64,000 nucleotides of DNA from Arenicellales bacterium (GTDB taxonomy: Bacteria; Pseudomonadota; Gammaproteobacteria; Arenicellales; Poriferihabitantaceae): assembly GCA_963665165.1 (NCBI GenBank), contig OY761989.1, forward strand, positions 679,976 through 743,975. Direction: 5' to 3'. Shown in pieces: positions 11,924 to 53,050 of this stretch (positions are counted from its first letter, which is position 1; every line of letters starts with the position of its first letter). The notes beneath the pieces are model-generated. The model did not search any database. It worked only from the letters and a program-made list of their open reading frames with translations, and was not told the origin of the DNA. The translations under genes were made by a program, and so were the position numbers.

Positions 11924-11975
11924 GGTTTTTCTTCTGGAAGCATTCGCTGAACATTTCCCGAATTTTCAAAATACA

Positions 11976-12128
11976 ACAAATTAGCCTGATTTAACAGGCT
12001 ATTTGTTGTATCATCGCGCCCCTTGGAAATGGCCGGCCCGGCTATTGCCGAAACCACTCTCTTTAGCGCAATTTCAAATCACTTACAGCCATGAAAGACT
12101 TGACCAAGTATAGAAACATCGGGATTTT
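11976..12128. repeat. 153-bp direct repeat, copy 1 (5' UTR plus first 13 codons of the EF-G paralog)
   Basis: Identical by eye, base for base, to 15051-15203. Contains ATG 12091 '[12 protein letters not shown]' and then diverges. Confidence 0.9.
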
Positions 12129-12207
12129 GTGGAGTCTGTACGCGCAACAAAATCAGGGATATGGGAGCCAGGACTCTGTTGGGGAATTATTCCAGGAGCT
12201 TCGGACG

Positions 12208-12267
12208 TCTTCCACAGCCGTTGAAGGTACCTGATCTGGACATCTTCTGAACAAACCAGGAAAACCC
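12208..12267. repeat. 60-bp repeat, copy A (inverted relative to copy B)
   Basis: The reverse complement matches 20791-20850 at 56 of 60 positions. Confidence 0.85.
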
Positions 12268-12576
12268 GACCCGGTTGAGTATCCGCCTCACACCCCACGC
12301 ATCCGGGATGCCAAATGCTTAATTTCCAGCCCAATTGAAGGAAGACCAAAAACGCTATGTTTTCAACCTCTTGGTGGACTCGTGACCTTCCATCTCCCGT
12401 TCCACGAACCTCTACTTAGTCGCATCCTCAGGACACGACCTTAGCGGCACTTGTCCCTGACCCGCAAGGCACTCCGCCCGACAAGAGGGCAGCGCTGCTG
12501 CCTGTTCATGTCCGCTGCGATACACCAAGCTGACGGGCAAGGCACTACAAGCAGACCGGACGCCGGAGCGTCAGCT

Positions 12577-13254
12577 TCAGTAATGCTGGCCCAACTTTGC
12601 TGCTGGTGAACACTCTGCGTCGGGCCGGACAACGACGCAGGGCATGCGCAGCAGGTCCAGGTTTGTGGACCATCCGGCCCACAAAATCGCACCTCCAATC
12701 AACGACCGAACCTGTGGCTCCGGTTTACACTGTTCAGCGGGGTCTGGTAGGCGATCAGCGAATTCACGACAAGCAATCAAGGCATCCTCTGCATCTTCTG
12801 ATCCGCCTCTTTTGCTTTTGCCGGTCACGAATGCTTCCCAAAAGAATAGCGCGGACTCACTGTCCGAAAACTCCGACCAAGCCAGATGTACCGACGGAAG
12901 CGAGGTCCCCCGCTGGTTCAGTCGACACCGCAGCTCGTCAAGAATCCACGCGACTTGGGTGACGCCAGTGGCAAGCACGGCAGCCCCGGCCGCGGCCGAC
13001 CAAGCGCGATTCCCATCCACTCGACGGCCTTTCGTGAGGCACTGCGGCTTCGTCGGAACAGGCACCCAGAGCGGGCATTCGAAGCCGAGCGCCACCTTAC
13101 GCCCTTTCGCTATAGTGCAAGCAATGTCATCAACAAAGGCCACAATGCAGTTGCCCATATGGCTTTGATCTCCGACGAGGCGTGCCCATCCAAAGCGCTT
13201 CTTGGCGACAGACCCGATGTCGGCGCAATAGATCGTTAGTTCTTCACACGTCAT
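12577..13254 (-). CDS. RNase-H-fold (DUF429-like) predicted nuclease
   Basis: 'TIYCADIGSVAKKRFGWARL', 'VALGFECPLWVP' and 'EDAEDALIACREFA' resemble the D/E/D triad layout of RuvC/DUF429-type proteins. ATG 13254 overlaps the upstream stop as ATGA. Confidence 0.5.
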   Translation of the reverse strand: MTCEELTIYCADIGSVAKKRFGWARLVGDQSHMGNCIVAFVDDIACTIAKGRKVALGFECPLWVPVPTKPQCLTKGRRVDGNRAWSAAAGAAVLATGVTQVAWILDELRCRLNQRGTSLPSVHLAWSEFSDSESALFFWEAFVTGKSKRGGSEDAEDALIACREFADRLPDPAEQCKPEPQVRSLIGGAILWAGWSTNLDLLRMPCVVVRPDAECSPAAKLGQHY

Positions 13255-17335: not shown

Positions 17336-18550
17336 ATGAACACTCTTGACAGACCTCAAACAATCCACTTCGAGAATGGCGTCAAGCATAAGCCGACGTT
17401 TTCTGCGGCAGAAATGAATCGTCGCTTGACCAGGCTTCGCGCTTGCATGGAGGCGGCCAATATAGACGCCACGCTATTCACTTCGATTCATAACGTCAAC
17501 TATTACGCCGACTTCGTTTATTGTTCCTTTGGTCGTCCGTATGGTCTGGTGGTGACGCATGACGCGCAGACCACGGTCAGCGCCAATATCGACGGTGGCC
17601 AGCCGTGGCGCCGGAGCCTGGCCGATAATATCGTTTATACGGATTGGCAACGGGACAATTTTTTTCGCGCGCTGCAAAAACTGATCCATGGCAAGGTCCG
17701 TGTTGGTATAGAGCACGACCATCTGGCCCTGGAACATCACGCAAAATTGACTGAATTTCTGCCAGATGCCGAGTTCGTCGACATTGGAGCGCCCACCATG
17801 AAGATGCGCATGGTTAAATCTCCCGAGGAGCATGCGTTGATCCGACAGGGAGCGCGTATCTCGGATATCGGTGGCGCGGCCTGTGTAGAGGCTGTTGCAG
17901 AGGGGGTGCCTGAGTATGAGGTGGCCATGCATTCAACCCGGGCGATGGTGCGTGCGATCGCGAATACCTATCCACATACCGCATTGATGGATACCTGGAC
18001 CTGGTTCCAGTCCGGCATCAACACCGATGGCGCCCATAATCCGCTTACGACCAGACGCATCGGGAAAGGGGATATCCTGAGCCTGAACTGCTTCTCAATG
18101 ATTTCAGGCTACTATCAGGCGCTCGAACGCACGCTGTTTTTACACCACGTTTCGGATCGCGCGCTGGAACTCTGGGAAATTAACTGTGAGGTGCATCGTA
18201 AAGGATTGGAGCTGGTCCGTCCGGGTATGAAATGTTGTGAGGTGGCCGCCGAACTGAACGAGATTTTTCTGCACTATGGATTATTGCAGTACCGTACCTT
18301 CGGTTATGGCCATTCTTTCGGTTCGCTGTCCCACTATTACGGGCGTGAGGCGGGGCTTGAGTTTCGGGAAGACATCGAGACCGTACTCGAGCCGGGTATG
18401 GTGGTTTCAATAGAGCCGATGATCACATTGCCGGAGGGTATGGAAGGCGCAGGTGGCTACCGTGAGCACGATATCCTGATTGTCACCGGGGATGGGGCCG
18501 AAAACATCACGCGCTTTCCGTTTGGTCCGGAGCATAATGTAATCGGTTGA
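17336..18550 (+). CDS. Creatinase (creatine amidinohydrolase, M24 family)
   Basis: Collinear with Pseudomonas putida creatinase as recalled: 'YCSFGRPYGLVVT', 'ANIDGGQPWRR', 'TWTWFQSGINTDGAHNP', 'QYRTFGYGHSFG', 'GGYREHDILIV'. Confidence 0.9.
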   Translation: MNTLDRPQTIHFENGVKHKPTFSAAEMNRRLTRLRACMEAANIDATLFTSIHNVNYYADFVYCSFGRPYGLVVTHDAQTTVSANIDGGQPWRRSLADNIVYTDWQRDNFFRALQKLIHGKVRVGIEHDHLALEHHAKLTEFLPDAEFVDIGAPTMKMRMVKSPEEHALIRQGARISDIGGAACVEAVAEGVPEYEVAMHSTRAMVRAIANTYPHTALMDTWTWFQSGINTDGAHNPLTTRRIGKGDILSLNCFSMISGYYQALERTLFLHHVSDRALELWEINCEVHRKGLELVRPGMKCCEVAAELNEIFLHYGLLQYRTFGYGHSFGSLSHYYGREAGLEFREDIETVLEPGMVVSIEPMITLPEGMEGAGGYREHDILIVTGDGAENITRFPFGPEHNVIG

Positions 18551-27501: not shown

Positions 27502-27624
27502 TCAACTATCGGGAAGTAATGGGGTTTGCAGCAATACACAACCGACGCTCCCCGTTGTACAGCAACAACAGGCCAGCGCCAGCGGCATGGTATGAATGAC
27601 CGGATTGGTTGTGATTGAACTCAT
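27502..27624 (-). promoter_or_regulatory. Candidate Cys-codon-rich leader ORF upstream of cysI
   Basis: 'MSSITTNPVIHTMPLALACCCCTTGSVGCVLLQTPLLPDS*' with TGT TGT TGC TGT at 27570-27559. An 11-bp inverted repeat (27470-27480 / 27544-27554) brackets its 3' part and stop codon. A hairpin plus U-run lies before cysI. Confidence 0.35.
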
Positions 27625-27783
27625 GGGGCCGAGTATAGACATCATCCGTATTCGCGGCAAGAAATAATTCCGAAAAAAATCCTGAAAGATATGTTTTCTG
27701 CAATTTCTGGTGTAATCTATAATTCGGGAGCCAGTCGAGATTCTGGTTCGGGGTCTTTGTCTTGAAGCAGCGGGGGTAGAATC

Positions 27784-28554
27784 ATGAAAGCGGCCGTATC
27801 GAAAATAAACCTTGAAAATACAAGCGAACAGGAATGGCAGGCGCGACAGGAGCTGGCCTGTTGTTACCGGGCATTTGTCCATTATGGCTGGACGGACCTG
27901 ATTTATACTCATCTGAGCGCCCGGTCGCCAGGGGAGAGTGACCGGTACCTGATCAATCCTTATGGACTGCTGTTTCAGGAAATTACGGCAAGCAATCTGA
28001 TCAAGGTGGATTTTGATGGTCATGTCGTTGCCGGGGATTATCCGTACAATAATGCCGGCCATGCGATCCATACCGCGATATTGAAGGCGCGCCCGGAAGT
28101 CAACGTTGTGCTCCACAGCCACACTCGGGCCGGGATGGCGGTTTCCTGCATGAAAGAGGGGTTGTTGCCACTGACCCAACAGGCAAACGAGATCAGTGGC
28201 ATTGTCTGCTACCATAAATATGGCGTGGCTACGAATAACGAGGAAGAATGCAGGTTGCTCGGGGAAAGCATGGCAGACAAATGGGCGATGATCATGCATA
28301 ACCACGGTTTGCTGAGCGCCGGGCGAACGATCGGGGAGGCCTTTTATTTTCTGTACCAGCTTGAAAGCGCCTGCAAGGTCCAGGTCGATGTGATGGCGTC
28401 CGGCGCCAGCAGGATTATCCCTGATGAGGAGGTGCTCCAGTCCCTGCATGATTATGGCATGCCGCCCGATGAGGCTCCGTTCTCCGATACGCGCCTGGCG
28501 TGGGAAGCGGTGACACGATTGATGGACTGGAAGGACTCTTCTTACCGTTCGTGA
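27784..28554 (+). CDS. Class II aldolase/adducin-domain protein
   Basis: 256 aa. 'AGHAIHTAILKARPEVNVVLHSHT' and 'MHNHGLLSAGRTIGEAF' are the metal-binding His pattern of the family. Confidence 0.85.
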   Translation: MKAAVSKINLENTSEQEWQARQELACCYRAFVHYGWTDLIYTHLSARSPGESDRYLINPYGLLFQEITASNLIKVDFDGHVVAGDYPYNNAGHAIHTAILKARPEVNVVLHSHTRAGMAVSCMKEGLLPLTQQANEISGIVCYHKYGVATNNEEECRLLGESMADKWAMIMHNHGLLSAGRTIGEAFYFLYQLESACKVQVDVMASGASRIIPDEEVLQSLHDYGMPPDEAPFSDTRLAWEAVTRLMDWKDSSYRS

Positions 28555-29529
28555 ATGATCCATTCCGGTTTCCGGAACCCATGTTTGCCCGGAGGATTGA
28601 AATTGACTGCTGAAGTGTTCGAGGCCCTTTCGACCATCGACGGTTTCACGGATACGAACCCGGATTCCGTCCGTGTTGAGCGGTTGGGGGGGCTGACTAA
28701 TCGCAATTACCGGATCGATTGCGATCATGGCTCCTATGTGTTGCGTCTGGCGGGTGAGGGAACATCGGATTACATTGACCGTTCAGTGGAATTCCATAAT
28801 GCCGCGATTGCCTCCGAAGCCGGGGTCAATGCTGAAATTGTGCATTTCGATACCGCGAGCGGCGCCATGATCTGCCGCTATATCGATAACGCAGTGACAC
28901 TCGACGCGGAGAAGTTGCGCGACCGCGGCGTACTCGAAAGAACCGGAAAGGCCTTTCGAAAATTGCATGATTGCGGGCGGCCTTTCAAGGGGCAATTCGA
29001 ATTGTTCGACCAGGTTGACCAGTATCTGGCCGTGCTTGCGGACCTGAAAGCCGAATTGCCGCCGGGATATGACGAAGCGCAACGGGACGCGGAGCATGTG
29101 CGTTCCGCCTTGTCGCGCCATGTTTTGCCGAACAGGCCCTGCCACTGTGACCCGATGGTGGAAAACTGTATCGATAACGGTGAAATGGTCTATATCATTG
29201 ATTTCGAATACTCCGGCAATAACGACCCGATGTGGGACCTTGGGGATATTTCAGTCGAAGGGGGTTTTACCGATGAACAGGATCATGTTTTTCTGAACGC
29301 CTATTTCGGGCATCCTCCCGGCGTTTTCGATGTTGGCAGAATGGTGATGTACAAGGCGATGTGTGATTTTCTGTGGACTTTATGGGGAGTGGTGCAGCAT
29401 GCCAACAACAACCCGGCGGACGATTTTTGGGCTTATGCGACCGGGCGGCTTGAGCGTTGCCGGATACTCATGGCGAGTGACGATTTTACCCGGCAGCTCG
29501 AAGCGGTAAAGGCTGGTCCCGGGGCATGA
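28555..29529 (+). CDS. Choline/ethanolamine-kinase-family phosphotransferase (copy 1)
   Basis: 'LGGLTNRNYRI', Brenner motif 'HCDPMVENCI' and choline-kinase motif 'IIDFEYSGNNDPMWDLG'. The start abuts the aldolase stop (TGAATG). Confidence 0.75.
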   Translation: MIHSGFRNPCLPGGLKLTAEVFEALSTIDGFTDTNPDSVRVERLGGLTNRNYRIDCDHGSYVLRLAGEGTSDYIDRSVEFHNAAIASEAGVNAEIVHFDTASGAMICRYIDNAVTLDAEKLRDRGVLERTGKAFRKLHDCGRPFKGQFELFDQVDQYLAVLADLKAELPPGYDEAQRDAEHVRSALSRHVLPNRPCHCDPMVENCIDNGEMVYIIDFEYSGNNDPMWDLGDISVEGGFTDEQDHVFLNAYFGHPPGVFDVGRMVMYKAMCDFLWTLWGVVQHANNNPADDFWAYATGRLERCRILMASDDFTRQLEAVKAGPGA

Positions 29530-30296
29530 AAAAGGCGGGCGCCACCCGACAGGAACTGGAGGCCGATCAATATTCCCTGGAGTCGATCAGGCGGTACGAG
29601 GCGATTTTCGGCGAGGATTTTGTCAGCCCCGGTGGTCTGGATGTGGCGGTTGAATTAATAGGCAGACTCGAACTGGCGCCCGGCGCCCGGGTGCTTGACG
29701 CGGCTTGCGGACTTGGCGGCAACGCCTTTTTGATGGCCCGGGATTTCGGGTTCCGGGTGGATGGCATTGACCTGTCGGGCCACATGATTGAAATGGCGAC
29801 GCGGAAGCTGGAGGGCCATGGATTGCATGGCCAGGTTTCCCTGGCGCAGGGAGATTGTCTGGAACTGGCTGTGGACCGGCCCGGTTATGACGCGGTTTAC
29901 AGTCGCGATTCCTTTCTGCATATTCATGACAAATCCCGTTTGTTCAGCCGGCTCAAAGCCGTTTTGCACCCCGGGGGGAAGCTGCTTTTCACCGATTACT
30001 GCTGCGGCGACGAACCATGGAGTGAAACCTTTTCCTCTTACGTAAAGGGGCGGGGATATTGCCTGCATACGATTGCCGGATATGTCCGGATCATCCGTGA
30101 CGCGGGGTTCAGGGAGGTTGAGGCGGACGACATGACGGATCGATTCCTGCAGATCCTGCAACAGGAACTGGACAGGATACCCCGGTTGGACTTCAGCGCC
30201 GCCGCGAAAGAGGAGATGACACGAAGCTGGGAAAGCAAGATTGAGCGGGTCCTTTCCGGCAACCATCGCTGGAGCCTGTTTACCGCGACAACCTGA
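29526..30296 (+). CDS. SAM-dependent methyltransferase resembling phosphoethanolamine N-methyltransferase
   Basis: 'SIRRYEAIFGEDFVSPGG', 'VLDAACGLGGNAF', 'YSRDSFLHIHDK', 'GGKLLFTDYC' and C-terminal 'HRWSLFTA' parallel plant PEAMT and Plasmodium PMT motifs as recalled. ATGA overlap with the kinase. Confidence 0.7.
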   Translation: MKKAGATRQELEADQYSLESIRRYEAIFGEDFVSPGGLDVAVELIGRLELAPGARVLDAACGLGGNAFLMARDFGFRVDGIDLSGHMIEMATRKLEGHGLHGQVSLAQGDCLELAVDRPGYDAVYSRDSFLHIHDKSRLFSRLKAVLHPGGKLLFTDYCCGDEPWSETFSSYVKGRGYCLHTIAGYVRIIRDAGFREVEADDMTDRFLQILQQELDRIPRLDFSAAAKEEMTRSWESKIERVLSGNHRWSLFTATT

Positions 30297-30480
30297 TGAT
30301 GAGGCGGGGCAGGAGCAAATAACCCGCGGCCCGGTCCGGGCGGTCCTGACAGATCGGGTCCGCTCCGGTTATTTGACTTTGACCGGGTATTCAGGTGAAA
30401 TTTGAGCGAAGCATGCTCTGGTTGTGCGACATCCGGACTGCCGGTTTTTTTAATCGAATCAGAATTGGAGAAGACTCATA

Positions 30481-31434
30481 ATGCAAAAAACGAATACAAA
30501 ATTATTGCTTGCCGGATCATTGATTGCAGGATTGATGATGATTTCAGGTCCGGCCCGGTCGGTGGAATCGAATGACCCGATCAAGCTCACCCTGCATGAC
30601 TGGACCGGACAACTGGTCACCACCAACATTATGGCCGAAGTATTGAAGGACGGGGGTTACAACGTCGAGTTGGTTCAGGCGGATTACATTGCCCAGTTTG
30701 CCGGCCTGAAAACCGGTGACCTTCATGTGGCCATGGAGATGTGGGAAACCACGGGTCGGGATGCGATGGATGAAGCGACCGCAACCGGCAAGGTGGAGAA
30801 TATCGGCCCAACCGGAATGGAGGGGATTGAAGAATGGTGGTATCCGATGTATATGAAAGAACGTTGTCCCGGACTGCCGGACTGGAAAGCGTTGAATGAC
30901 TGTGCGGAGGAGTTCTCGACGCCGGAAACCGCGCCGTTAGGGCGTTATGTCGGCGGCCCGGTAACCTGGGGAGGATTTGATGATGAACGCGCTGAAGCCC
31001 TGGAGCTGGAGTATGAGGTGATTCACGCCGGTACCGATGCCGCGTTGTTTGCGGAACTGGAATCCGCCTATCAGAGAGAGGCTCCGGTTTTATTATGGGT
31101 GTACGCGCCTCATTGGGCGCCTTCCAAATATCAGGGAGAGTGGGTTGAGTTTCCTCCTTATTCAGCCGAGTGTTACAACGACCCGTCCGTGGGGGTGAAC
31201 CCGGATATGGCTTATGATTGCGGCAAGCCGCGCGGCCCCATCTGGAAAGTGGCCTGGGCCGGAGTCAAGGATAAATGGCCGGGCGCGTATAACATGATCC
31301 GGAATTTCGAGATCAGCAATGATGAAATGGGAACCATGATTGCCGCCATAGACCTGGATGGGCAGGAACTGGACGCAGTGGTTGCCGACTGGCTGGCGAA
31401 CAATCAGGCCCGCTGGAAAGCATGGCAAAAATAG
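30481..31434 (+). CDS. Glycine betaine/choline-type ABC substrate-binding protein (ProX/OpuAC family)
   Basis: Signal peptide 'LLLAGSLIAGLMMISGPARS'. Trp-rich 'LHDWTGQ', 'MEMWETTG' and 'EEWWYPMY' are typical of quaternary-amine binding boxes. Confidence 0.8.
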   Translation: MQKTNTKLLLAGSLIAGLMMISGPARSVESNDPIKLTLHDWTGQLVTTNIMAEVLKDGGYNVELVQADYIAQFAGLKTGDLHVAMEMWETTGRDAMDEATATGKVENIGPTGMEGIEEWWYPMYMKERCPGLPDWKALNDCAEEFSTPETAPLGRYVGGPVTWGGFDDERAEALELEYEVIHAGTDAALFAELESAYQREAPVLLWVYAPHWAPSKYQGEWVEFPPYSAECYNDPSVGVNPDMAYDCGKPRGPIWKVAWAGVKDKWPGAYNMIRNFEISNDEMGTMIAAIDLDGQELDAVVADWLANNQARWKAWQK

Positions 31435-31519
31435 GCTGAACCGATAACCGCACCCGTTGTGGACAGCTCGTTCTGTCTGCGGCGGGTGTTTTTCCAAAGC
31501 CTGGGTAAACGGCATCCGT

Positions 31520-33499
31520 ATGTCTGATCGTGGCCGCCGCTGGCTGGTTCGTTTCGGTTGGTTCGGTGTCGCCGGGATTGCCGCGCTCATGGTTTATCTG
31601 GGCAAGGCGAATATCCGGTGGGCGTTCAAGGTTCCTTCGGATTGGCGGCTGCCGCTGCGTAACCAGATCTCCGATTTCATGGATTGGCTGGTCAACACGG
31701 CGGATCTTGGATTATTTACATTTTACGAGTTGACCCGAAGTATCTCATGGCTGCTGGAACAGCCATTGAATTTCGCTTCGGGCGTGCTGGCCACCGGGTT
31801 GTTGTCCGGAGAAGGGTCGGCCGCCGTTCAACTGACTCCGCCCCTGTCCTGGGTCGCGGTAACGCTGCTGGCGATGGCGCTCGGCCACTATGCCAGGGGC
31901 TGGAGGCTGTCCCTGTTTGTCGGCGCCTGCTTCTGCTACCTGGTGGTTTTCGGGCAATGGGGAAGCGCCATGCTGACCTTGTCTTCGGTCCTGATTGCCG
32001 TACCCATCGGGGTTGTCGGGGGCGTACTGCTCGGCATTCTGGCGTATCGCAGCCGCTGGATGGAGAAAATCATCTCGCCCATTCTTGACCTGATGCAGAC
32101 GGTACCGGTCTTTGCCTATCTGGTGCCGGTATTGTTCCTGTTCGGATTCGGGCCGGTGGCCGCAATGATTGCGACCATTATCTATGCCATGCCGCCGATG
32201 GTCCGGGTGACGATCCTCGCCTTGCAGCAGGTGCCGGATGACCTGATCGAGGCGGGTCAGATGGCCGGCTGCAATACATTGCAGATGATGGCGAGGGTAT
32301 TGCTGCCTTCTTCGATGCCGATGCTGATGGTCGGGGTCAATCAGGTCATCATGCTGTCCCTGAATATGGTCATCATCGCCTCGATGATCGGAGCCGGAGG
32401 GCTGGGCTATGATGTGCTGTCCGCGTTGAGGAGGCTGGATATCGGGGCAGGTATTGAATCCGGCCTGGCGATTGTGGTGCTGGCCATTGCCCTGGACCGG
32501 CTGAGCCAGGCTTTCGCCACCCGCCCCGCGGGGCAGTTCAAAAGCGACAAGGGGCTGCTCGGCCGGCATCCCCATATCGTGTTTTCCGTGGGCATGCTGG
32601 TCGTGATTTCCCTGATTTCGCTGGTCGTGCACCAGATCCAGGCCTGGCCTCAATCTCTGACCATCACCACAGGGGATTTCTGGAGCAATCTGGTCAAGCA
32701 CATCAACATCAACTATTTCGACCAGATTGAAGCAGTCAAGATTTTCATATTGATGAATGTGTTGTTGCCGGTAAAACGATTTCTGCTGATATTGCCCTGG
32801 CCGATGGTGGTACTGGCTGTCGGGCTGCTCGGATTTCAACTCGGCGGTGTCCGGCTTGCCCTGATCGTGTTTTTTCTCGCGCTGTTCTGCGCATTGACCG
32901 GGTTGTGGGCCAAAACCATGGTGACGGTCTATCTGTGCGGGATTTCAGTCGTGTTTGCCGCGTTGCTGGGTATTCCGGTCGGCATTCTGGGCGCCCAGTG
33001 GCCGTTCCTTGGCAGGATCATTGAAACCATCATCGATACCTTGCAGACATTGCCGTCATTCGTTTATCTGATGCCGGTGGTGATGCTGTTCAGAGTGGGG
33101 GATTTCGCGGCGATGATTGCCGTGATTTGCTATTCGGTCGCCCCTGCGATCCGTTACACTCTCCATGGCATTCGCCAGGTCAACCCGGAACTGGTTGAAG
33201 CAGGTCTTGTCAGCGGTTGCACCCGCTGGCAGATTCTGACCAGAATCAAGCTCCGCCTGGCTTTCCCGGAAATCATGCTCGGCATCAATCAAACCGTGAT
33301 GCTGGCGCTTTCGATGCTGGTGATTACCGCGCTGGTCGGTACCCGGGAGTTGGGGCAGGAGGTCTATATCGCGCTGACCAAGGCCGATACCGGGAGAGGC
33401 ATTGTGGCGGGTTTGTGTGTAGCCTTCATTGCCATCATTACGGACCGATTGATTCATGCCGGGGTCGCGCGGTCCCGGCAACGCCTGGGCCTGGAATAG
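31520..33499 (+). CDS. Fused double ABC permease (two ProW/OpuAB-like domains)
   Basis: About 660 aa with two BPD-type transmembrane units ('EAGQMAGCNTLQMMARVLLP' and 'EAGLVSGCTRWQILTRIKL' EAA-loops). Start set at ATG 31520. Confidence 0.8.
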   Translation: MSDRGRRWLVRFGWFGVAGIAALMVYLGKANIRWAFKVPSDWRLPLRNQISDFMDWLVNTADLGLFTFYELTRSISWLLEQPLNFASGVLATGLLSGEGSAAVQLTPPLSWVAVTLLAMALGHYARGWRLSLFVGACFCYLVVFGQWGSAMLTLSSVLIAVPIGVVGGVLLGILAYRSRWMEKIISPILDLMQTVPVFAYLVPVLFLFGFGPVAAMIATIIYAMPPMVRVTILALQQVPDDLIEAGQMAGCNTLQMMARVLLPSSMPMLMVGVNQVIMLSLNMVIIASMIGAGGLGYDVLSALRRLDIGAGIESGLAIVVLAIALDRLSQAFATRPAGQFKSDKGLLGRHPHIVFSVGMLVVISLISLVVHQIQAWPQSLTITTGDFWSNLVKHININYFDQIEAVKIFILMNVLLPVKRFLLILPWPMVVLAVGLLGFQLGGVRLALIVFFLALFCALTGLWAKTMVTVYLCGISVVFAALLGIPVGILGAQWPFLGRIIETIIDTLQTLPSFVYLMPVVMLFRVGDFAAMIAVICYSVAPAIRYTLHGIRQVNPELVEAGLVSGCTRWQILTRIKLRLAFPEIMLGINQTVMLALSMLVITALVGTRELGQEVYIALTKADTGRGIVAGLCVAFIAIITDRLIHAGVARSRQRLGLE

Positions 33500-33528
33500 G
33501 CCCGGACGACTGAACCTGGAATTAACTT

Positions 33529-34434
33529 ATGAATACAGAGCAACTTGGTCAGATAAACTCGCTGCCGTGCTGGCGGGGCCGGATCCGTGTCGAACCACTC
33601 AGCGGCGGCATGACAAACCATAACTTCAAGGTCGAGGATTGCGGCAAGCAATATGTGGTGCGCCTGGGGGCCGATGTCGCGGAGCATCTCCTGTGGCGTG
33701 AGAATGAAGGCCGGGTTTCCATGACCGCGGCCAAATGCGGATTCTCACCGGCTGTTTTTTACCGGGAGCCGGGGGTGCTGGTGATTGATTTCATTGATGG
33801 CCGGGTATTTTCCGGTGAGGATGTCCGGAATCCTGAAAACCTGCGGAAACTGGTTGAGCTTCTGCAACGCTTCCATCGGCAGATGCCTCTTGAATTCGGG
33901 GGGTACACGATCCTGTTCTGGGTATTCCAGGTATTGAGGCATTATCGCAATGTGCTGGCAAGCAGGAATTCCGCATATATGGACCAGGTCCCTGAGCTGA
34001 TGGAAATCGCAAAGAATCTGGAACGGACTGTGGGACCGGTTGAAATCGTATTCGGACATAATGATTTGCTACCCGCAAATTTTATCGATGACGGGGAGAA
34101 AATCTGGTTGATTGATTTCGACTATGCCGGATTCAACAGTCCCTTGTTCGATCTTTCCAACCTGGCGTCGAACAGTGAACTGGAAGAGGAGCGGGAGCGG
34201 CGCCTGTTGACGCTTTATTTCGATCGTCCGGTCACCGCCGACCTCTGGCTTCGTTACAATGCGATGAAATGCGCTTCCCTGTTGCGGGAAACCATGTGGT
34301 CGATGGTGTCGGAAGCCTGTTCGACGATCGACTTTGATTTTGGCGGCTATACGCGTGAGAACCAGGCCCGGTTCGAGCGCGCCTGGCAGAATTATACCCG
34401 GATTTCCGGATCGTCGTCCGCGCCCGCCTTGTGA
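33529..34434 (+). CDS. Choline/ethanolamine-kinase-family phosphotransferase (copy 2)
   Basis: 'LSGGMTNHNFKV', Brenner motif 'GHNDLLPANFI' and 'LIDFDYAGFNSPLFDLSNLA'. Confidence 0.75.
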   Translation: MNTEQLGQINSLPCWRGRIRVEPLSGGMTNHNFKVEDCGKQYVVRLGADVAEHLLWRENEGRVSMTAAKCGFSPAVFYREPGVLVIDFIDGRVFSGEDVRNPENLRKLVELLQRFHRQMPLEFGGYTILFWVFQVLRHYRNVLASRNSAYMDQVPELMEIAKNLERTVGPVEIVFGHNDLLPANFIDDGEKIWLIDFDYAGFNSPLFDLSNLASNSELEEERERRLLTLYFDRPVTADLWLRYNAMKCASLLRETMWSMVSEACSTIDFDFGGYTRENQARFERAWQNYTRISGSSSAPAL

Positions 34435-35249
34435 TGTCCCGGTCCAGCCATATCTACGATATTGACCCGGCGGATTTCAATACGATGGTGGTTGAGAATT
34501 CCTTCAAGGGCCTGGTCCTGGTTTACTTCTGGTCACAGAATGCCGGTCCCTGTATGAAACTTCTTCCGGTCCTTGTCAAACTTGCCGATGAGTTTTCAGG
34601 CCGGTTCCTGCTCAACCTGCTGGATACGGATCGGCACAAGAGGTATGCCCGGGATATGGGTGTGATCAGCATTCCGACCGTCCAGTTCTATCTGAGCGGC
34701 AAGGTCGTCGAGACGCTGCATGGCGCGTTTTCCGAAGGATATGTTCGCGGCGTGATCGAAAAAACACTGGACCAGAGCGCTGCAATCCGGATCGGACCGG
34801 AAAAATCCGGATCGGACAGGCGGTTCGCCAGTACGCTGGACCGCGCGAAAAAACTTCTTCTGCAGGGAGACGCGGTCCATGCGGCCGTCTTGCTGGATTC
34901 GATTCCGCGCGAGGCGCTGGAGATTCCGGAAATCGGTCTGGTCAAAGCCCATGCCGATTTGATCCGAGCGGCGCAACTGGCGCCGGAACGGCAGGTCATC
35001 GTCCAGCGGATCGAGGAGGACCCCCGGGACTTTCCGTCGCTCTGGCAACTGGCTGCCCTGAATCTGGTGGCGGACGATTATCAGTCGGCGCTGGAGTTGT
35101 TGCTGTCCATCCAAGACCAGAGCCCCGATCCTGACATTGCAGACCGGGCGCTCAGGTCGATACTGGCTGTTTTTGCCCTGCTCGGAGAATCCCATCCTCT
35201 GGTTGAACGGTTTTCAGAAGTATTGAATCGATCCGGTTCGACCGGTTAG
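34434..35249 (+). CDS. Thioredoxin-fold plus TPR-like protein (YbbN/CnoX-like)
   Basis: Thioredoxin-like N-terminus with 'WSQNAGPCM' (SxxC in place of CxxC) and a helical C-terminal half. The start overlaps the upstream stop (TGATG). Confidence 0.65.
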   Translation: MSRSSHIYDIDPADFNTMVVENSFKGLVLVYFWSQNAGPCMKLLPVLVKLADEFSGRFLLNLLDTDRHKRYARDMGVISIPTVQFYLSGKVVETLHGAFSEGYVRGVIEKTLDQSAAIRIGPEKSGSDRRFASTLDRAKKLLLQGDAVHAAVLLDSIPREALEIPEIGLVKAHADLIRAAQLAPERQVIVQRIEEDPRDFPSLWQLAALNLVADDYQSALELLLSIQDQSPDPDIADRALRSILAVFALLGESHPLVERFSEVLNRSGSTG

Positions 35250-35251
35250 CC

Positions 35252-36166
35252 ATGATTATGCAAAATCCCACGGCCAGGGCTTATGCGCTGTTGACAATGA
35301 CTACCTTTTTCTGGGGATGCAACTCGGTGCTGGCCCGAGTCGCGGTCGGTGAGGTTTCGCCAATGCTGATTGTGAGCCTGCGCTGGCTGGGTGTGATGAT
35401 ATTGTTACACCGCAATGTTTTCGCGTGGCGGGTCATATATCAGGAATGGGGCAAACTGAAACCGCATCTCCCTGTGCTTTTCCTGATGGGGGCGCTGGGC
35501 TTGAGCGCCTTCAATGCATTGTTCTATCTGTCGGCCCATACCACCACCGCGCTGAACATAGGCATTATCCAGGGCATCGTCCCGGTGTTCCTGCTGGGCG
35601 GAGCCTGGCTTTTGTATCGCGTCCCGGTAACGTTGTTGCAGGGGTTGGGCGCCATCGTCACCATACTCGGTGTCTGCATCGTCGCGTCCGCGGGCAACCT
35701 CCAGAAACTGGCCTCGCTGTCGATCAACCAGGGCGATTACCTGTTGTTCTTCGGGTGTCTGCTTTATGCGAGTTATGCGCTGGTGCTGAGAAGGTTTGCC
35801 GGTGTGTCCGCGTTAAGCCTGTTCGCTGTGATCTCCGTTGCCGCTTTCATCGCATCGTTGCCATTGAGTCTGGCGGAACTGTACCTGGGAAATTTCCAGT
35901 GGCCGACCCGAAAGGGATGGATCGTGATGATATTGATTACCCTGTTGCCTTCTTTCCTCGCCCAGGTGTTTTTCATCCAGGGAGTGAAGGAACTGGGAGC
36001 CGGCCGGGCCGGGATATTTGTCAATCTGGTCCCGGTATTTTCCTCGATTCTCGCGGTGTCGGTTCTGGGTGAGTCATTCCAGGTCTATCACGCAGTCGCG
36101 TTGATCCTGGTGATTGGCGGCATCGGGCTGGCGGAAAGCAGGAGACACAAAGCGGTCGCGGTCTGA
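35252..36166 (+). CDS. EamA/DMT-superfamily transporter
   Basis: 304 aa, about 10 TM segments in two EamA repeats. Starts 2 nt after the upstream stop. Confidence 0.75.
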   Translation: MIMQNPTARAYALLTMTTFFWGCNSVLARVAVGEVSPMLIVSLRWLGVMILLHRNVFAWRVIYQEWGKLKPHLPVLFLMGALGLSAFNALFYLSAHTTTALNIGIIQGIVPVFLLGGAWLLYRVPVTLLQGLGAIVTILGVCIVASAGNLQKLASLSINQGDYLLFFGCLLYASYALVLRRFAGVSALSLFAVISVAAFIASLPLSLAELYLGNFQWPTRKGWIVMILITLLPSFLAQVFFIQGVKELGAGRAGIFVNLVPVFSSILAVSVLGESFQVYHAVALILVIGGIGLAESRRHKAVAV

Positions 36167-40432: not shown

Positions 40433-40509
40433 CGGGGTATAGCGCAGTCTGGTAGCGCGCCTGCTTTGGGAGCAGGATGTCGGGAGTTCAAATCTCTCTA
40501 CCCCGACCA
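40433..40509 (+). tRNA. tRNA-Pro (anticodon UGG)
   Basis: 77-nt cloverleaf CGGGGTA...TACCCCGACCA. The anticodon loop is TTTGGGA. TTCAAAT T-loop and encoded CCA. Confidence 0.9.
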
Positions 40510-40528
40510 GTTTTCCGTTTTGTCCGTT

Positions 40529-40927
40529 GCGCCCGTAGCTCAACCGGATAGAGCAACGGCCTTTAAGCTTCATTCTGGCATTTGGCCACAGGGTTTTGTG
40601 CAGAGTGGAACCGGGAGCCTTCGGAAGGAACAAGTAACTTTCGAAGTGGAGGGCACTGTATCGGTGGAACCTTAACGCAGGCGGGTCACGAAGTTGTGTC
40701 TGTGGTCCGTCCGGCGATGGCAATACCGAGGAAACCCGATTCGATCTGTTAGAATCGGACCGGGGATCCGTAGAGACTATACGTGCCCCGCCTGAAATGG
40801 CGAAGATATAGTCCAGACTCCAAACCCGGCGGGTTGGTTGGTACACCCTCAACTCTCCGGGGCGGTGAAAACCGTAGTGGGTAAGCTAAGCCGTAGGTTA
40901 CAGGTTCGAATCCTGTCGGGCGCGCCA
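40529..40927 (+). tRNA. tRNA-Arg (anticodon UCU) interrupted by a 322-nt intron between nt 34 and 35
   Basis: Exon 1 is 40529-40563 and exon 2 is 40886-40927. They join to a 77-nt cloverleaf with acceptor GCGCCCG/CGGGCGC, anticodon arm ACGGC-CUUCUAA-GCCGU and an encoded CCA. The anticodon arm is near-identical to E. coli argU as recalled. Confidence 0.85.
40564..40885 (+). ncRNA. Group I intron (ORF-less; subgroup not determined)
   Basis: Preceded by U and ends in G. R-like GTAGAGACTATACG and S-like AAGATATAGTCC elements. P7 is GACTATA (40775-81) / TATAGTC (40807-13). P3 is GGGCAC (40651-56) / GTGCCC (40783-88). P8 is the hairpin CGCC-TGAAAT-GGCG (40789-40802). Confidence 0.8.
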
Positions 40928-40974
40928 TTTATGGCCATAACGATTTTCGTTCAGGGTGTTTTTTACAGGTTTGT

Positions 40975-41051
40975 GGTGAGCGTAGCTCAGTTGGTAGAGC
41001 CCCGGATTGTGATTCCGGTCGTCGTGGGTTCGAGTCCCATCGTTCACCCCA
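40975..41051 (+). tRNA. tRNA-His (anticodon GUG)
   Basis: Encoded G-1. GGTGAGCGTAGCTCAGTTGGTAGAGC...; anticodon loop TTGTGAT; encoded CCA. Confidence 0.9.
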
Positions 41052-41079
41052 TTTAATAGTGAAACTGCGAACAGGAACT

Positions 41080-41164
<85 letters not shown>

Positions 41165-49253: not shown

Positions 49254-51866
49254 TTATTCGCTCATTTTCGGCGCTCTTCTGCGTTGCGACCACCAGACCA
49301 GCGCCAGCAGGAAAATCGCGGGGAGGTAAAACACCTCTTTGGGTACACGGTCTTTTGCGATTCTGATGGTGCTCAATTCCACCGGATGATCCGTGTAGTA
49401 GTCGAAGGTCTTGCCGATGGTTTCAAAGAAGGGCGATCCGGGAAAGGGTTCTTCAATAATCGCGCGGCCGTCTTCCACAATGACCGTAAGTCCGGCTTTT
49501 TCCAGTCTCTCGACCGCCTCGGTCTGGTCACCCATCGGAACCAGGATGGTTGTGCTGGTGATTTCGCCGGTATCGAAATCAGGGCCGGTTACCACCATGG
49601 TCAGCGTCCCGTCCGGGGTTGCGCTATCGACCACTTCATAAACTTTGGCCGGTTGGATTTCCTCGAATGGCTGGTCTACCCTGTCCAGCCAGAAACCGGG
49701 GCGAAACAGGGTGAAGGCGACCAGCAGCAGTACCAGGGATTCCCAGACCTTGTTTCGGGTCAACAACCAGCCCTGGGTCGCCGAGGCGAACAGCATCATG
49801 GCGATGACGGCGACAACGAATACGAATACGGCCTTCAGCGGCGACACATTGATCAGCAGCAGTTCAGTGTTGAAAATAAACAGGAACGGCAGCAGGGCGG
49901 TGCGAATATCATAGGCAAACCCCTGGATCCCGGTTTTGATCGGATCTCCCTTGGAAATCGCCGCCGCCGCAAACGCCGCAAGCCCGACCGGAGGGGTGTC
50001 GTCCGCCAGGATGCCAAAATAAAATACAAACAAGTGCACGGCAATCAACGGAACCAGCAAGCCATTGGCCGCTCCCAGGGTGATGATAACCGGGGCCATC
50101 AACGAGGAGACGACGATATAGTTGGCTGTCGTAGGCAGTCCCATGCCGAGGATCAGGCTCATCACGGCGACCAGCAATAACATCACGATCAGGTATCCGC
50201 CGGACAGGAACTCTACAAATTCGCCGACGACCTGATGGGCGCCGGTCAATGATATGGTTCCGACTATAATCCCCGCCGCGCCGGTCGCCACCGAAATACT
50301 GATCATGTTGCGTGATCCTGCGATCATGCCGGAGACCCAGTCATTCTTGCCGATTTGAAATGCCGCCCGATAATTTCCGGTACCCCGGAAAAACGCTTTG
50401 ATCGGGTGTTGGGTCAGGGTCACGATGACCATCGCGATTGCCGCCCAGAATGCGGACAATCCCGGCGACAGCCGTTCGATCACGATACTCCAGATCAGGA
50501 TCACGATGGGCAGAATGAAATACAGGCCGGTGAGCGCCGTTTCTCCCGCTTTCGGCAGTTCGGTGATCGGTGCGTCCGGGGCGTCGACAACCAGGTCGGG
50601 TATTCTGGATGCGAGCTTCAGGAGAAACAGGTAAAACCCCGCGCAACCCGCCGCAACGATATAAAAGGCCGAAGCCGGCGCCACGACCTTGATCCAGCCG
50701 AGGCCGTAGTAAACCAGGATGCCAAGTAGTCCGATGCCGATGAATCCGCCCAGGAACCCCATCATTTTACGGGCGAAAGTCAGGGAGGAGGGAGGTTTGG
50801 GCAGTCCTTTCAGGTTCAGCTTCATGGCTTCGAGATGAACGATGTAAAACAGCGCGATATAGGATACCAGCGCGGGCACCAGCGCGTGTTTCAGTATTTC
50901 CTGGTAGCTGATGCCGGTAAATTCCGCGATCAGGAATGCCGCGGCCCCCATGACCGGAGGGGTCAACTGGCCGTTGGTTGAGGAGGCCACTTCGACCGCA
51001 CCCGCCTTTTCAGGGGAAAATCCTGTGCGCTTCATCAGTGGAATGGTAAACGTCCCGGTGGTGACCGTGTTGGCGATGGATGATCCGGAGTACATGCCGC
51101 TCAGGGCCGATGCGACCACGGCCGCCTTGGCCGGTCCGCCCCGCAAATGCCCGAGCAGGGCAAAGGCGATCTTTATGAAAAAATTCCCCGCCCCCGCTTT
51201 TTCCAGAATGGAGCCAAACAGCACAAACAGGAAGATCAGGGTGGCTGAAACTCCGAGCGCGACGCCAAACACGCCTTCGTTCTGCATCCAGAAATGCCAC
51301 ATCGCCTTGCCATAGGACGCTCCCTTCCATTGAATCGTTTCGGGTAACCAGTCGGAGTTGCCAAAGAAAACATAAGAGACGAACACACTGGCGACGATCA
51401 ACAACGGAAGTCCGAGAGAACGATAGACCGTGATTCCAAGAATCAGCATACCGACGGTCGATGCGACCAGGTCGCTGGTTGTCGGCAATCCGGCGCGAAC
51501 CGCAATTTCGTTTCTAAGGACCACGATATACAGACAGCAGGCCACGCCGGCAATGGCCAGAACCCAGTCATACCAGGGGATTCGGGTCGTTGAACTGGAC
51601 TTGAACAGCGGGAAGGCAAGGGTGGCCAGGAAAAAGCCGAACGCGAGGTGGATCAACCTGGCGTTCGAGTTGGTGACGATGACACTGATTCCGGTCACAT
51701 CGGTCAGCCAGAACGGGAGATTGGATGCGATATAAAGTTGAAACAGGGCCCAGACAAACGCGACCGTGGCGATCAGTTTGCCTTCCCAGCCGACCGGGTT
51801 GCGGCCTCCGGTATCAACTGCAGAAAAATCCTCCAGGCTGCCTTGGGATTCTTTGTCTTGTGCCAT
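49254..51866 (-). CDS. TAXI-type TRAP transporter fused permease (with C-terminal DUF3394-like domain)
   Basis: 870 aa, polytopic. The N-terminus 'GKLIATVAFVWALFQLYIASN' is typical of fused 4TM/12TM TRAP permeases. Confidence 0.85.
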   Translation of the reverse strand: MAQDKESQGSLEDFSAVDTGGRNPVGWEGKLIATVAFVWALFQLYIASNLPFWLTDVTGISVIVTNSNARLIHLAFGFFLATLAFPLFKSSSTTRIPWYDWVLAIAGVACCLYIVVLRNEIAVRAGLPTTSDLVASTVGMLILGITVYRSLGLPLLIVASVFVSYVFFGNSDWLPETIQWKGASYGKAMWHFWMQNEGVFGVALGVSATLIFLFVLFGSILEKAGAGNFFIKIAFALLGHLRGGPAKAAVVASALSGMYSGSSIANTVTTGTFTIPLMKRTGFSPEKAGAVEVASSTNGQLTPPVMGAAAFLIAEFTGISYQEILKHALVPALVSYIALFYIVHLEAMKLNLKGLPKPPSSLTFARKMMGFLGGFIGIGLLGILVYYGLGWIKVVAPASAFYIVAAGCAGFYLFLLKLASRIPDLVVDAPDAPITELPKAGETALTGLYFILPIVILIWSIVIERLSPGLSAFWAAIAMVIVTLTQHPIKAFFRGTGNYRAAFQIGKNDWVSGMIAGSRNMISISVATGAAGIIVGTISLTGAHQVVGEFVEFLSGGYLIVMLLLVAVMSLILGMGLPTTANYIVVSSLMAPVIITLGAANGLLVPLIAVHLFVFYFGILADDTPPVGLAAFAAAAISKGDPIKTGIQGFAYDIRTALLPFLFIFNTELLLINVSPLKAVFVFVVAVIAMMLFASATQGWLLTRNKVWESLVLLLVAFTLFRPGFWLDRVDQPFEEIQPAKVYEVVDSATPDGTLTMVVTGPDFDTGEITSTTILVPMGDQTEAVERLEKAGLTVIVEDGRAIIEEPFPGSPFFETIGKTFDYYTDHPVELSTIRIAKDRVPKEVFYLPAIFLLALVWWSQRRRAPKMSE

Positions 51867-51940
51867 CTTTTCCTCGCTGAGAATCGTTTACTTCAATATC
51901 GGGTTCAATTTCCCTGGTGATGTCCGTTTTCCCGGAGCCA

Positions 51941-51979
51941 GAAACAAAAAGCCCTCCCGAATTTCGCAGGAGGGCTTTT
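51941..51979 (-). terminator. Rho-independent terminator/attenuator between the TAXI binding-protein and permease genes
   Basis: Minus-strand hairpin GCCCUCC-11 nt-GGAGGGC (51951-57 / 51969-75) followed by UUUUUGUUU. Confidence 0.6.
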
Positions 51980-52005
51980 CGGGCTGTAACCGGTATCCGG
52001 CAGAA

Positions 52006-52977
52006 TTACATCCAGCCGCGTTCCTTGTAATACTTTTCCGCGCCCGGATGCAGCGGGGCTGAAAGGGAGTCGGAAATCATTTCCGCCTCGCTCAGGTTTC
52101 CGAATGCGGGATGCAGCTTCTTGAAGTCTTCGAAGTTTTCAAATACGGCCTTGACCACGACATAGACGACCTCGTCGGGGACATCGGCGCTGGAAACGAA
52201 GGTGGCTCCGACCCCGAAAGTCTGGATGGCATTCTCGTTATTGTACATACCCGCTGGAATCGAGGCGGTTCGATAGTACGGGTTGTCGGCCACCAGCTTG
52301 TCGATAGCCGCTCCTTCAACGTGGACCAGGTGGGCATCGCAGGTTGCCAGGGATTCCTGGGTCAGGGCGGACGGGTGGCCGACCAGCCAGAAATAGGCGT
52401 CGATCTTGCCATCGCATACCGCCTGTCCGGTTTCAGCTGACTTCATTTCCGCTGCCAGTTTGAGATCGCTGCGTTCCCAGCCGAGCGCTTCTTCAATGAC
52501 TTCCCAGGTGCCCCGGGTGCCGGAACCGGGATTGCCGATATTCAGGCGTTTGCCCTTGGCGTCGGTCAGGGTATTGATTCCGGATGCGTCGCTGGCGATG
52601 ACGGTAACCGGTTCCGGGTGGACCGAGAAGACAGCGCGCAGATTTTCGAATGCGCCCTGGTCCTCGAATTTCGAAGTGCCGTGGTAAGCGTGATATTGCC
52701 AGTCGGATTGCGCCACGCCAAATTCGAGTTCTCCGGCCCGGATGGTATTGATATTATAAATCGAGCCACCGGTCGATTCCGCCGAGCAACGAATGCCGTG
52801 TTCCTTGCGGTTCTTGTTGACCAGTCTGCAAATGGCGCCGCCGGTCGGGTAGTAAACGCCGGTCACACCGCCTGTACCGATGGAGATAAACTGTTGCTGG
52901 GCATGGGCGGTCATTGCGCTCATGCCGGTCACAGCCATTCCTGTGGCAATGATCGAAGATAGAATCGTGTTTCTCAT
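52006..52977 (-). CDS. TAXI-family TRAP transporter solute-binding protein
   Basis: Signal peptide, then 'FISIGTGGVTGVYYPTGGAICRLVN', the TAXI (TTT-like) signature. Confidence 0.85.
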   Translation of the reverse strand: MRNTILSSIIATGMAVTGMSAMTAHAQQQFISIGTGGVTGVYYPTGGAICRLVNKNRKEHGIRCSAESTGGSIYNINTIRAGELEFGVAQSDWQYHAYHGTSKFEDQGAFENLRAVFSVHPEPVTVIASDASGINTLTDAKGKRLNIGNPGSGTRGTWEVIEEALGWERSDLKLAAEMKSAETGQAVCDGKIDAYFWLVGHPSALTQESLATCDAHLVHVEGAAIDKLVADNPYYRTASIPAGMYNNENAIQTFGVGATFVSSADVPDEVVYVVVKAVFENFEDFKKLHPAFGNLSEAEMISDSLSAPLHPGAEKYYKERGWM

Positions 52978-53050
52978 GATGATGCCTCTCTATAATGAAG
53001 GTGAAGTTATCAGATCGCCCACAGGATGAATGACCTGAACCTTTTTCGAT

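Follow-up and report, generated by a model that had tools for sequence, protein, structure and literature searches.

A candidate bacterial phosphobase N-methyltransferase, coupled to a choline/ethanolamine-kinase-family gene and lying beside a betaine-type importer

The stretch of DNA analysed here, hereafter the window, comprises 64,000 nucleotides of contig OY761989.1 from an Arenicellales bacterium. Between positions 27784 and 36166 it carries a block of eight genes, in which a predicted phosphobase N-methyltransferase (PMT) is accompanied by two kinases of the choline/ethanolamine-kinase family and by components of an ATP-binding cassette (ABC) importer. In line with the first-pass annotation, which had described eight co-directional genes, all eight open reading frames (ORFs) were found on the + strand, and the families stated for them exceed the Pfam gathering score. 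The features of the block are the following.

27784..28554, + strand: class II aldolase/adducin-family protein, 256 aa (Pfam Aldolase_II)
28555..29529, + strand: kinase 1, choline/ethanolamine-kinase family, 324 aa (Pfam Choline_kinase)
29526..30296, + strand: predicted single-domain, stand-alone phosphobase N-methyltransferase (PMT family), 256 aa (Pfam class I methyltransferase; PDB similarity, residues, predicted fold)
30297..30480, no strand: intergenic gap of 184 nt, probable boundary of two transcription units
30481..31434, + strand: TmoX-like periplasmic substrate-binding protein (SBP), OpuAC family, 317 aa (Pfam OpuAC)
31457..33499, + strand: fused double ABC permease of ChoW/ProW type, 680 aa (two Pfam BPD_transp_1 domains)
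33529..34434, + strand: kinase 2, divergent choline/ethanolamine-kinase family member, 301 aa (Pfam Choline_kinase)
34431..35249, + strand: thioredoxin-fold and tetratricopeptide-repeat (Trx-TPR) protein, YbbN/CnoX-like (Pfam Thioredoxin and TPR_20)
35252..36166, + strand: EamA/DMT-family membrane transporter, 304 aa (two Pfam EamA domains)

The signatures of translational coupling claimed for these genes were indeed present. Reading of the sequence located a TGA directly against an ATG between the aldolase and kinase 1 genes (28552-28557), an ATGA overlap between the kinase 1 and methyltransferase genes (29526-29529) and GTGATG between the kinase 2 and Trx-TPR genes (34431-34436); the Trx-TPR and EamA genes meet as TAG-CC-ATG (35247-35254), with a 2-nt gap at 35250. 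The proposal of a single operon needs qualification, since 184 nt separate the methyltransferase gene from the SBP gene. Moreover, in the related locus L003/L053, an unrelated gene (AAA-ATPase_like/PDDEXK_9, 11054-12622) is inserted at this very place, which shows that the two halves of the block are separable. In view of this gap and of this insertion, the block probably consists of two adjacent units, aldolase-kinase 1-methyltransferase and SBP-permease-kinase 2-Trx-TPR-EamA. The gap contains a weak hairpin (30352-30370), and an Rfam scan of it (30297..30480) gave no match; no riboswitch or other RNA leader was found at the block, where promoter and terminator scans gave uninformative counts, close to the shuffled expectation. 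Ratios of nonsynonymous to synonymous substitution rates (dN/dS), computed for the window genes against two relatives, indicated purifying selection on all eight genes (0.06-0.25), which are therefore functional genes and not chance ORFs. An antisense ORF of 408 aa (27502-28728, - strand) overlaps the aldolase gene and the beginning of that for kinase 1; we take it to be a spurious artefact of high GC content, since the + strand ORFs combine strong family matches with low dN/dS.

Sequence matches, active-site residues and predicted fold all agreed in placing the methyltransferase in the PMT family, as had been proposed from conserved sequence blocks, and these blocks were indeed present both in the window protein and in the Arabidopsis and Plasmodium PMTs. 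The best sequence matches in the PDB were the C-terminal MT2 domains of Arabidopsis PMT1/PMT2 (E ~1e-61, best 2e-61; 40-45% identity), and the other PMTs included nematode PMT-2 (2e-43 for HcPMT2, and 3e-39) and the Plasmodium PMTs (~1e-38; 4e-38 for PfPMT). The alignment with PMTs spans residues 8-255 of 256, and the first non-PMT match appeared at an E-value of 1.7e-16. From a structural point of view, an AlphaFold model of the protein (mean pLDDT 92.4), compared with the PDB using Foldseek, matched PMTs in all of the top 21 positions (TM scores of 0.83-0.93; for the top 20, 0.89-0.93 at an rmsd of ~1.6 Å), the next match being 2o57 (TM 0.81). The predicted fold is that of PMTs, a Rossmann core with lid helices. 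The window protein and 14 bacterial homologues were then aligned with PfPMT, whose sequence was verified as identical to 3uj6, using the published list of its active-site residues (PMC6705855). The catalytic dyad Tyr19/His132 and Asp128 correspond to Y16, H132 and D128 of the window protein, the phosphobase-binding Tyr27, Tyr160, Tyr175 and Tyr181 to Y24, Y158, Y172 and Y178, and the phosphate-binding Arg179 and Lys247 to R176 and K238, all being invariant in the bacterial homologues. The acidic residues in contact with S-adenosylmethionine (SAM), D58, D82 and D110, are also conserved in the window protein.

These data bear on a different identity for this gene, that of a glycine/sarcosine/dimethylglycine N-methyltransferase making the osmolyte glycine betaine directly, which would suit the adjoining betaine-type importer. 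A sarcosine/dimethylglycine N-methyltransferase model indeed ranks first among the NCBIfam matches (NF041675), but it reaches 64.5 bits for a cut-off of 550; similarly, 2o57 is matched at 1e-10, compared with 1e-61 for PMTs, and the set of phosphate-binding Arg, Lys and Tyr residues of PMTs is intact. We rejected this candidate, which appears hardly credible. We hold with high confidence, from aligned residues and from the structural model, that the enzyme is a phosphobase N-methyltransferase.

The family to which it belongs is sharply bounded, with only 131 clusters (50% identity) at E<=1e-30 among 1.84 billion proteins. A neighbour-joining tree of 111 family members, built without bootstrap, was star-like and placed the window clade with other short stand-alone proteins, apart from di-domain proteins. 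The NCBI curated library holds no model for this bacterial group, the members of which are named just 'methyltransferase domain-containing protein'; the automatic annotation of JGI, based on KEGG Orthology (KO), already names many homologues phosphoethanolamine N-methyltransferase, so that the family assignment itself is not new. A search for PMT orthologues on plasmids of cultured bacteria found none, the best match being 33% identical. Within the PMT family, MT2-type domains perform only the last two methylations; PfPMT performs all three.

Some features of the methyltransferase family deserve separate mention. Beside the phosphobase-binding Tyr158 lies a vicinal pair, Cys159-Cys160 (DYCCG), invariant in all bacterial homologues. 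A glutaredoxin gene stands 3' of the methyltransferase gene in two loci (L070, 10786-11160; L071, 10786-11193), and one protein, P0037, is a methyltransferase-glutaredoxin fusion; together with the Trx-TPR gene of the window block, this constitutes a recurring thiol-redox link. Another protein, P0121 (553 aa, from a metagenomic contig of 2969 bp), has two tandem PMT-like domains, each matching the query.

Both kinases were confirmed as members of the choline-kinase family, with Pfam Choline_kinase (PF01633) scores of 74 bits for kinase 1 and 90 bits for kinase 2 (gathering score 29); as regards the Brenner (HxDxxxxN) and choline-kinase (IDxEY...N...D) motifs, D176, N181 and D194 are conserved in both. 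They share 26% identity. Kinase 1 matched in the PDB a Mesorhizobium protein of the choline/ethanolamine-kinase family (3dxq, 8e-90) and pneumococcal LicA (4r77, 9e-39), and kinase 2 gave weaker matches to the same two structures. Thiamine and aminoglycoside (APH-type) kinase models stayed far under their cut-offs for both proteins, and neither was matched by a model of the methylthioribose kinase MtnK. The residues of the LicA choline pocket (T29, D176, V178, Y197, E213, W251, W254 and Y268; PMC4364537) served as a reference for the amine site. Kinase 1 and 33 orthologues retain all the catalytic and pocket residues of LicA, bar a conservative change of V178 to M/L. Kinase 2 departs from LicA: the window copy carries N for E213, E for W251 and D for E196, the first two replacements being shared by 5/5 orthologues compared and the third by 4/5. 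The amine pockets of the two kinases thus differ.

The association of kinase and methyltransferase genes was then sought in other genomes, by scanning a methyltransferase profile against one genome per GTDB species. This yielded 63 loci, 55 of them informative, mostly from marine or sponge Gammaproteobacteria, with a few from Acidimicrobiales, Caldilineaceae and others. Arenicellales and Candidatus Poriferihabitaceae, the latter a family of sponge-associated Gammaproteobacteria, provided the nearest loci, with methyltransferases 84% and 79% identical to that of the window. In 37 of the 55 informative loci, the immediate neighbour of the methyltransferase gene is a kinase 1-type gene (upstream in 23, where stop and start codons usually overlap, and downstream in 14), and 40 have a kinase anywhere within the locus. 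This linkage reaches Arenicellales, Granulosicoccus and other Gammaproteobacteria, and the same overlap was present on independent metagenome contigs. The expectation of a conserved gene association was therefore borne out for the kinase-methyltransferase pair but not for the rest, as the aldolase-kinase-methyltransferase triad and the eight-gene order were restricted to Arenicellales/Ca. Poriferihabitaceae. It is likely that kinase 1 supplies the substrate of the methyltransferase. In locus L049, a kinase 2-type gene lies directly upstream of the kinase 1 gene, and no permease was detected.

The aldolase is a clear member of its family (Pfam Aldolase_II, PF00596, 4e-46 and 157.6 bits; PDB 3ocr, 9e-56; NCBIfam subfamily PRK07044, 281.6 bits for a cut-off of 207), with HxH motifs of the metal-binding type at residues 111 (HSH) and 172 (HNH) and a dN/dS of 0.11-0.14. 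Because it abuts a kinase gene, it could form with it a sugar or methylthioribose salvage pair, of the MtnK/MtnB or FucK/FucA kind, the methyltransferase being an unrelated neighbour. Models of MtnB and of ribulose-1-phosphate aldolase do match the protein, but weakly, at 41-52 bits for cut-offs of 137-300 (MtnB TIGR03328, 41 vs 137). Furthermore, the kinases match choline kinases, with no match to MtnK, no isomerase gene is present, and the aldolase is linked in one clade only, compared with the broad kinase-methyltransferase link. Such a salvage pair is barely conceivable. Outside the closest relatives, the aldolase gene is absent or several kb distant (L007, L027, L059). Two loci (L010, 2-487; L014, 4099-5298) have a class I aldolase of the DHDPS/NAL family directly upstream of the kinase 1-methyltransferase pair, and the occurrence of two unrelated aldolases in the same slot hints at a real link to aldol chemistry. 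One might speculate that a C2 aldehyde, for example glycolaldehyde, is supplied in this way, but no transaminase supports the idea. No function could be derived from the context of plasmid homologues (44-46% identity), which lie in mixed settings, next to an aminotransferase and a DMT transporter, TauD, or an oxidoreductase.

The second unit of the block is centred on import. The SBP (Pfam OpuAC, 5e-49) matched TmoX of Ruegeria pomeroyi (PDB 4xz6, 6e-73). Besides trimethylamine N-oxide, TmoX binds choline (Kd 2.5 µM for the SAR11 protein; PMC8918994). When the published pocket of TmoX (W55, W102, F106, E131, W177, F220 and W222) was mapped on the SBP, the corresponding residues were W41, W88, G92, E117, W163, W206 and Y208, so that the SBP has kept both the aromatic cage and the hydrogen-bonding Glu, with substitutions of F106 to G, F220 to W and W222 to Y, the last two leaving an aromatic residue in place. 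The resulting WWGEWWY signature was identical in 14/15 gammaproteobacterial SBPs from methyltransferase loci and in 2/2 alphaproteobacterial kinase-linked homologues, which therefore marks the SBP as part of a distinct specificity group and not as a true TmoX. It is also the most conserved gene of the block (dN/dS 0.06-0.07). The permease has two BPD_transp_1 domains (Pfam) and passes the NCBIfam choline ABC permease model (408.5 bits for a cut-off of 363); its true start is probably the ATG at 31520 and not the TTG at 31457, since relatives are called at 659-661 aa. The betaine-type importer that had been annotated was thus confirmed as regards its TmoX-like SBP and choline-type permease, but no ATPase is encoded with them. 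The same holds for the importers of L001, L002, L005 and L053; an ATPase gene is present in the related loci L019, L021, L033, L038 and L066. As the SBP is strongly conserved although this gene is missing, the ATPase of the window importer is likely encoded elsewhere. The order SBP-ATPase-fused permease-kinase 2 recurs in L019, L050, L064 and L066, and a kinase 2 gene also lies 3' of the permease gene on alphaproteobacterial plasmids.

The Trx-TPR protein (Pfam Thioredoxin, 4e-14; TPR_20, 1e-8) has an AGPC motif instead of CxxC; L001, L002 and L005 have its gene, and L003/L053 lack it. The EamA gene is kept at the same position in L001-L003, L005 and L053. Its product has two EamA domains (Pfam, 5e-33), and the suggestion that it might be LicB-like was not upheld, a PDB search having revealed no resemblance to LicB or other choline permeases of solved structure.

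The neighbourhoods of the methyltransferase gene in other genomes were enriched in methylated-amine metabolism, with DMGDH-like FAD/folate enzymes in 10 loci and MttB-family genes in 7, together with DeoR regulators, carnitine-type genes (L014), GlpD, zinc alcohol dehydrogenase and phosphoesterases. An MttB gene stands directly upstream of the kinase 1-methyltransferase pair in L027 (7378-8916) and L054 (5444-6973), and directly upstream of the methyltransferase gene in L016 (8353-9882); a demethylating and a methylating enzyme thus appear to share one operon. In L019, an operon SBP-ATPase-permease-kinase 2-DMGDH-like faces another composed of DeoR-kinase 1-methyltransferase.

One further context concerns phosphonates. 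In L004/L013, the genes flanking the kinase-methyltransferase pair are those of a phosphonate-binding ABC transporter and of a PF01663 phosphodiesterase, which would fit a methyltransferase acting on another phosphorylated or phosphonylated amine, either 2-aminoethylphosphonate (AEP), giving N-methyl-AEP derivatives, or a phospho-amino-alcohol, the product not being phosphocholine. The phosphate-binding residues would probably accept a phosphonate as well, and N-methylated AEP has been presented as a natural substrate class in bacteria (PMC10590968). However, a kinase would be superfluous for a phosphonate, whereas it is the gene most constantly found with the methyltransferase; no phosphonate genes lie in the window block, and the phosphobase-contacting residues of PfPMT are all unchanged. 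Such a substrate is therefore quite improbable.

Related operons were also found on plasmids of cultured Ruegeria, Salipiger and Rhizobium, with the order DeoR-SBP-ATPase-permease-kinase-DMGDH-like(-DMGDH-like-kinase) and no methyltransferase gene (L073, 1-9933; L074, 4961-14363; L075, 4062-20876; L072, 5618-9918). Like the window, those of Ruegeria, Salipiger and Rhizobium rosettiformans have an orthologous SBP with the same signature, a fused permease and both kinase types, at 44-51% identity; unlike it, they contain oxidative demethylases and, as companions, ETF, FolD, PurU and an inositol-monophosphatase-family gene. This demethylase content indicates a catabolic direction. In Salipiger, the operon lies directly beside genes of the gamma-glutamyl ethanolamine catabolic pathway, which has been described (PMC10132767). 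These contexts tie the kinase-transporter module to methylated-ethanolamine chemistry, and the plasmid operons have the look of a catabolic pathway, so far undescribed, that degrades methylated ethanolamines through phospho-intermediates; a literature search on methylethanolamine catabolism gave no description of them.

Taken together, these contexts raise the question of whether the block interconverts methylation states instead of making choline compounds de novo. The bases phosphorylated would be mono- or dimethylethanolamine taken up from outside, or products of choline breakdown, and the methyltransferase would carry out no more than the final one or two methylations, as plant MT2 domains and nematode PMT-2 do; the MttB-type and DMGDH-like enzymes of relatives would run the opposite way, the window clade having kept just the methylating half. 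This is consistent with the MT2-type domains found as closest solved relatives of the methyltransferase, with the full LicA choline-type pocket of kinase 1 and with the aromatic cage of the SBP, which fits methylated amines and carries a signature common to the alphaproteobacterial demethylase operons. It is also in line with the DMGDH-like and MttB genes of the methyltransferase loci, including the upstream MttB genes and the facing operons of L019 described above, and with the plasmid operons, where the same kinases are paired with two DMGDH-like genes and no methyltransferase. Against it, no DMGDH-like or DeoR gene lies near the window block, methylation and demethylation of one pool would amount to a futile cycle, and PfPMT, with the same active-site residues, performs three methylations, so that the residues do not exclude phosphoethanolamine. 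Free mono- and dimethylethanolamine are not known as abundant marine metabolites. On this evidence, interconversion seems somewhat unlikely.

We lean instead towards a phosphocholine-forming system made of two modules. In the first (aldolase-kinase 1-methyltransferase), kinase 1 would phosphorylate ethanolamine and/or its N-methylated forms, and the coupled PMT, using SAM, would methylate the phosphobase stepwise to phosphocholine, a route known from plants, Plasmodium and nematodes. In the second (SBP-fused permease-kinase 2, plus the Trx-TPR and EamA proteins), a choline-like methylated amino alcohol would be imported and phosphorylated on entry, so that synthesis and salvage would meet at the phosphobase pool. 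Free ethanolamine is a possible entry base, about which our opinion is slightly on the sceptical side. We infer the substrates of the methyltransferase, the number of methylations and everything downstream of phosphocholine.

Several observations weigh against this proposal. Kinase 1 has a complete pocket of the choline type and the closest solved relatives of the methyltransferase are of MT2 type, so that the pair may start from mono- or dimethylethanolamine instead of ethanolamine. The demethylating neighbours, DMGDH-like and MttB, are awkward for a purely biosynthetic function. In SAM motif I, the window protein reads LDAACGLGG, with Ala at the first Gly (residue 60, 29700-29710), compared with LDVGCGLGG in all 14 homologues; PfPMT also has Gly there, and the Ala is confined to the window protein. 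All 63 methyltransferase loci come from metagenome-assembled genomes (MAGs), and 15/55 informative loci have no kinase within ~10 kb. No ProV/TmoV-type ATPase was found in the block or in the 64-kb window, either by Pfam or with the L066 homologue as a query, whose sole match was a weak one to MsbA. Lastly, licC, licD, pcs, betA/B and a phosphocholine phosphatase gene (PchP) were not recognised in the 64-kb window. This search for consumers of phosphocholine applied Pfam to 40 more window ORFs, among them most of the larger ones, so that 48 of the 66 listed ORFs were covered, including the eight block genes. No gene of the LicC or LicD families occurs in the block, and the sole nucleotidyltransferases of the window are a KdsB-type enzyme and a 380-aa NTP_transferase-LbH protein, ~22 kb off in a lipopolysaccharide gene group.

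A broader view is that marine Gammaproteobacteria and, in a form without the methyltransferase, Roseobacters and rhizobia may have an unrecognised metabolism of phosphorylated ethanolamine bases, amounting to a reversible link between ethanolamine and choline at the phosphobase level. Dedicated kinases would trap imported bases as phosphobases, the PMT would methylate these up to phosphocholine and MttB-type or DMGDH-like enzymes would demethylate them towards phosphoethanolamine; sponge symbionts, keeping the methylating branch only, would be net producers of choline or phosphocholine. We consider this view unlikely; if true, the symbiont product could serve its own host-mimicking membrane or surface, or the host.

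As to novelty, the earlier remark that this route was not known as a described bacterial operon was supported by a full-text literature search, which found neither a described bacterial PMT nor a kinase-PMT operon. The enzymology itself is familiar from eukaryotes; no paper found describes a stand-alone bacterial PMT, the translational link of its gene with that of a kinase, or its combination with a dedicated importer. Bacterial de novo synthesis of the choline head group is currently attributed to lipid methylation (PmtA), and the route through soluble phosphobases is regarded as a trait of plants, apicomplexans and nematodes, even as a parasite-specific drug target. Judging from the genes, many marine bacteria seem to have this 'eukaryotic' route to choline, in uncharacterised form. 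If true, the conserved bacterial kinase-PMT operon would be a third bacterial source of choline compounds, and a microbial producer of choline or phosphocholine would be identified in two settings, sponges and marine sediments, whose fluxes of nitrogen and methyl groups are driven by choline, glycine betaine and methylamines. It would also provide a tractable single-domain bacterial PMT for enzymology. The work further flags in cultured Roseobacters and rhizobia a widespread, uncharacterised transporter-kinase-demethylase operon that is genetically testable.

Elsewhere in the window, positions 49254-54745 (- strand) hold a gene with a very strong match to the MttB family (770 bits) and, next to it, a TAXI-type TRAP transporter composed of an NMT1_3 binding protein and an 870-aa fused DctM; a creatinase-like gene occupies 17336-18550. 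These genes indicate methylated-amine scavenging typical of sponge symbionts. A stretch on the - strand (7072-10377) encodes a His-Me finger endonuclease, an N6/N4 DNA methylase and a Fic-domain protein, with a GC content of 0.48 compared with ~0.56, and is probably a restriction-modification or mobile islet. Three tRNA genes (40433-41161) separate htpG from the trigger factor-clpP-clpX genes.

The block can be compared with several known systems. The PmtA-type phospholipid N-methyltransferases (S-type and R-type) likewise perform a SAM-dependent, stepwise N-methylation from an ethanolamine to a choline head group, but they belong to another family and act on membrane-bound phosphatidylethanolamine, whereas the window methyltransferase has the residues for binding a soluble phosphobase, and its model is without the N-terminal amphipathic helix segment. 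AtPmtA and PfPMT share just 17% identity (PMC12139422). With regard to the TmoXWV/ChoXWV importers, the window SBP retains four cage positions and the Glu, and the permease passes the choline-permease model of NCBIfam; the differences lie in the signature (WWGEWWY instead of WWFEWFW), in the lack of an ATPase gene in the operon and in the presence of a kinase gene 3' of the permease gene. The lic1 loci of Streptococcus pneumoniae and Haemophilus influenzae share with the block the logic of taking up a choline-type base and phosphorylating it with a LicA-family kinase. Unlike in lic1, uptake would rely here on a TmoX-like ABC system and not on LicB, there is no LicC or LicD, and the methyltransferase, absent from lic loci, means that exogenous choline would not be strictly required. 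Finally, the PMTs of plants, Plasmodium and nematodes (PEAMT/PMT, EC 2.1.1.103; 5wp4, 3uj6, 4krh) share family, residues and fold with the window methyltransferase. Like PfPMT, the window enzyme has a single domain, and it is probably fed by a kinase of the choline/ethanolamine family; genes of the downstream Kennedy pathway were not seen. In contrast to its eukaryotic counterparts, the window gene is bacterial and lies in an operon, translationally coupled to its kinase, with an ABC importer and another kinase next to it, and its family is distinguished by the invariant Cys pair of the DYCCG motif and by recurring thiol-redox partner genes.

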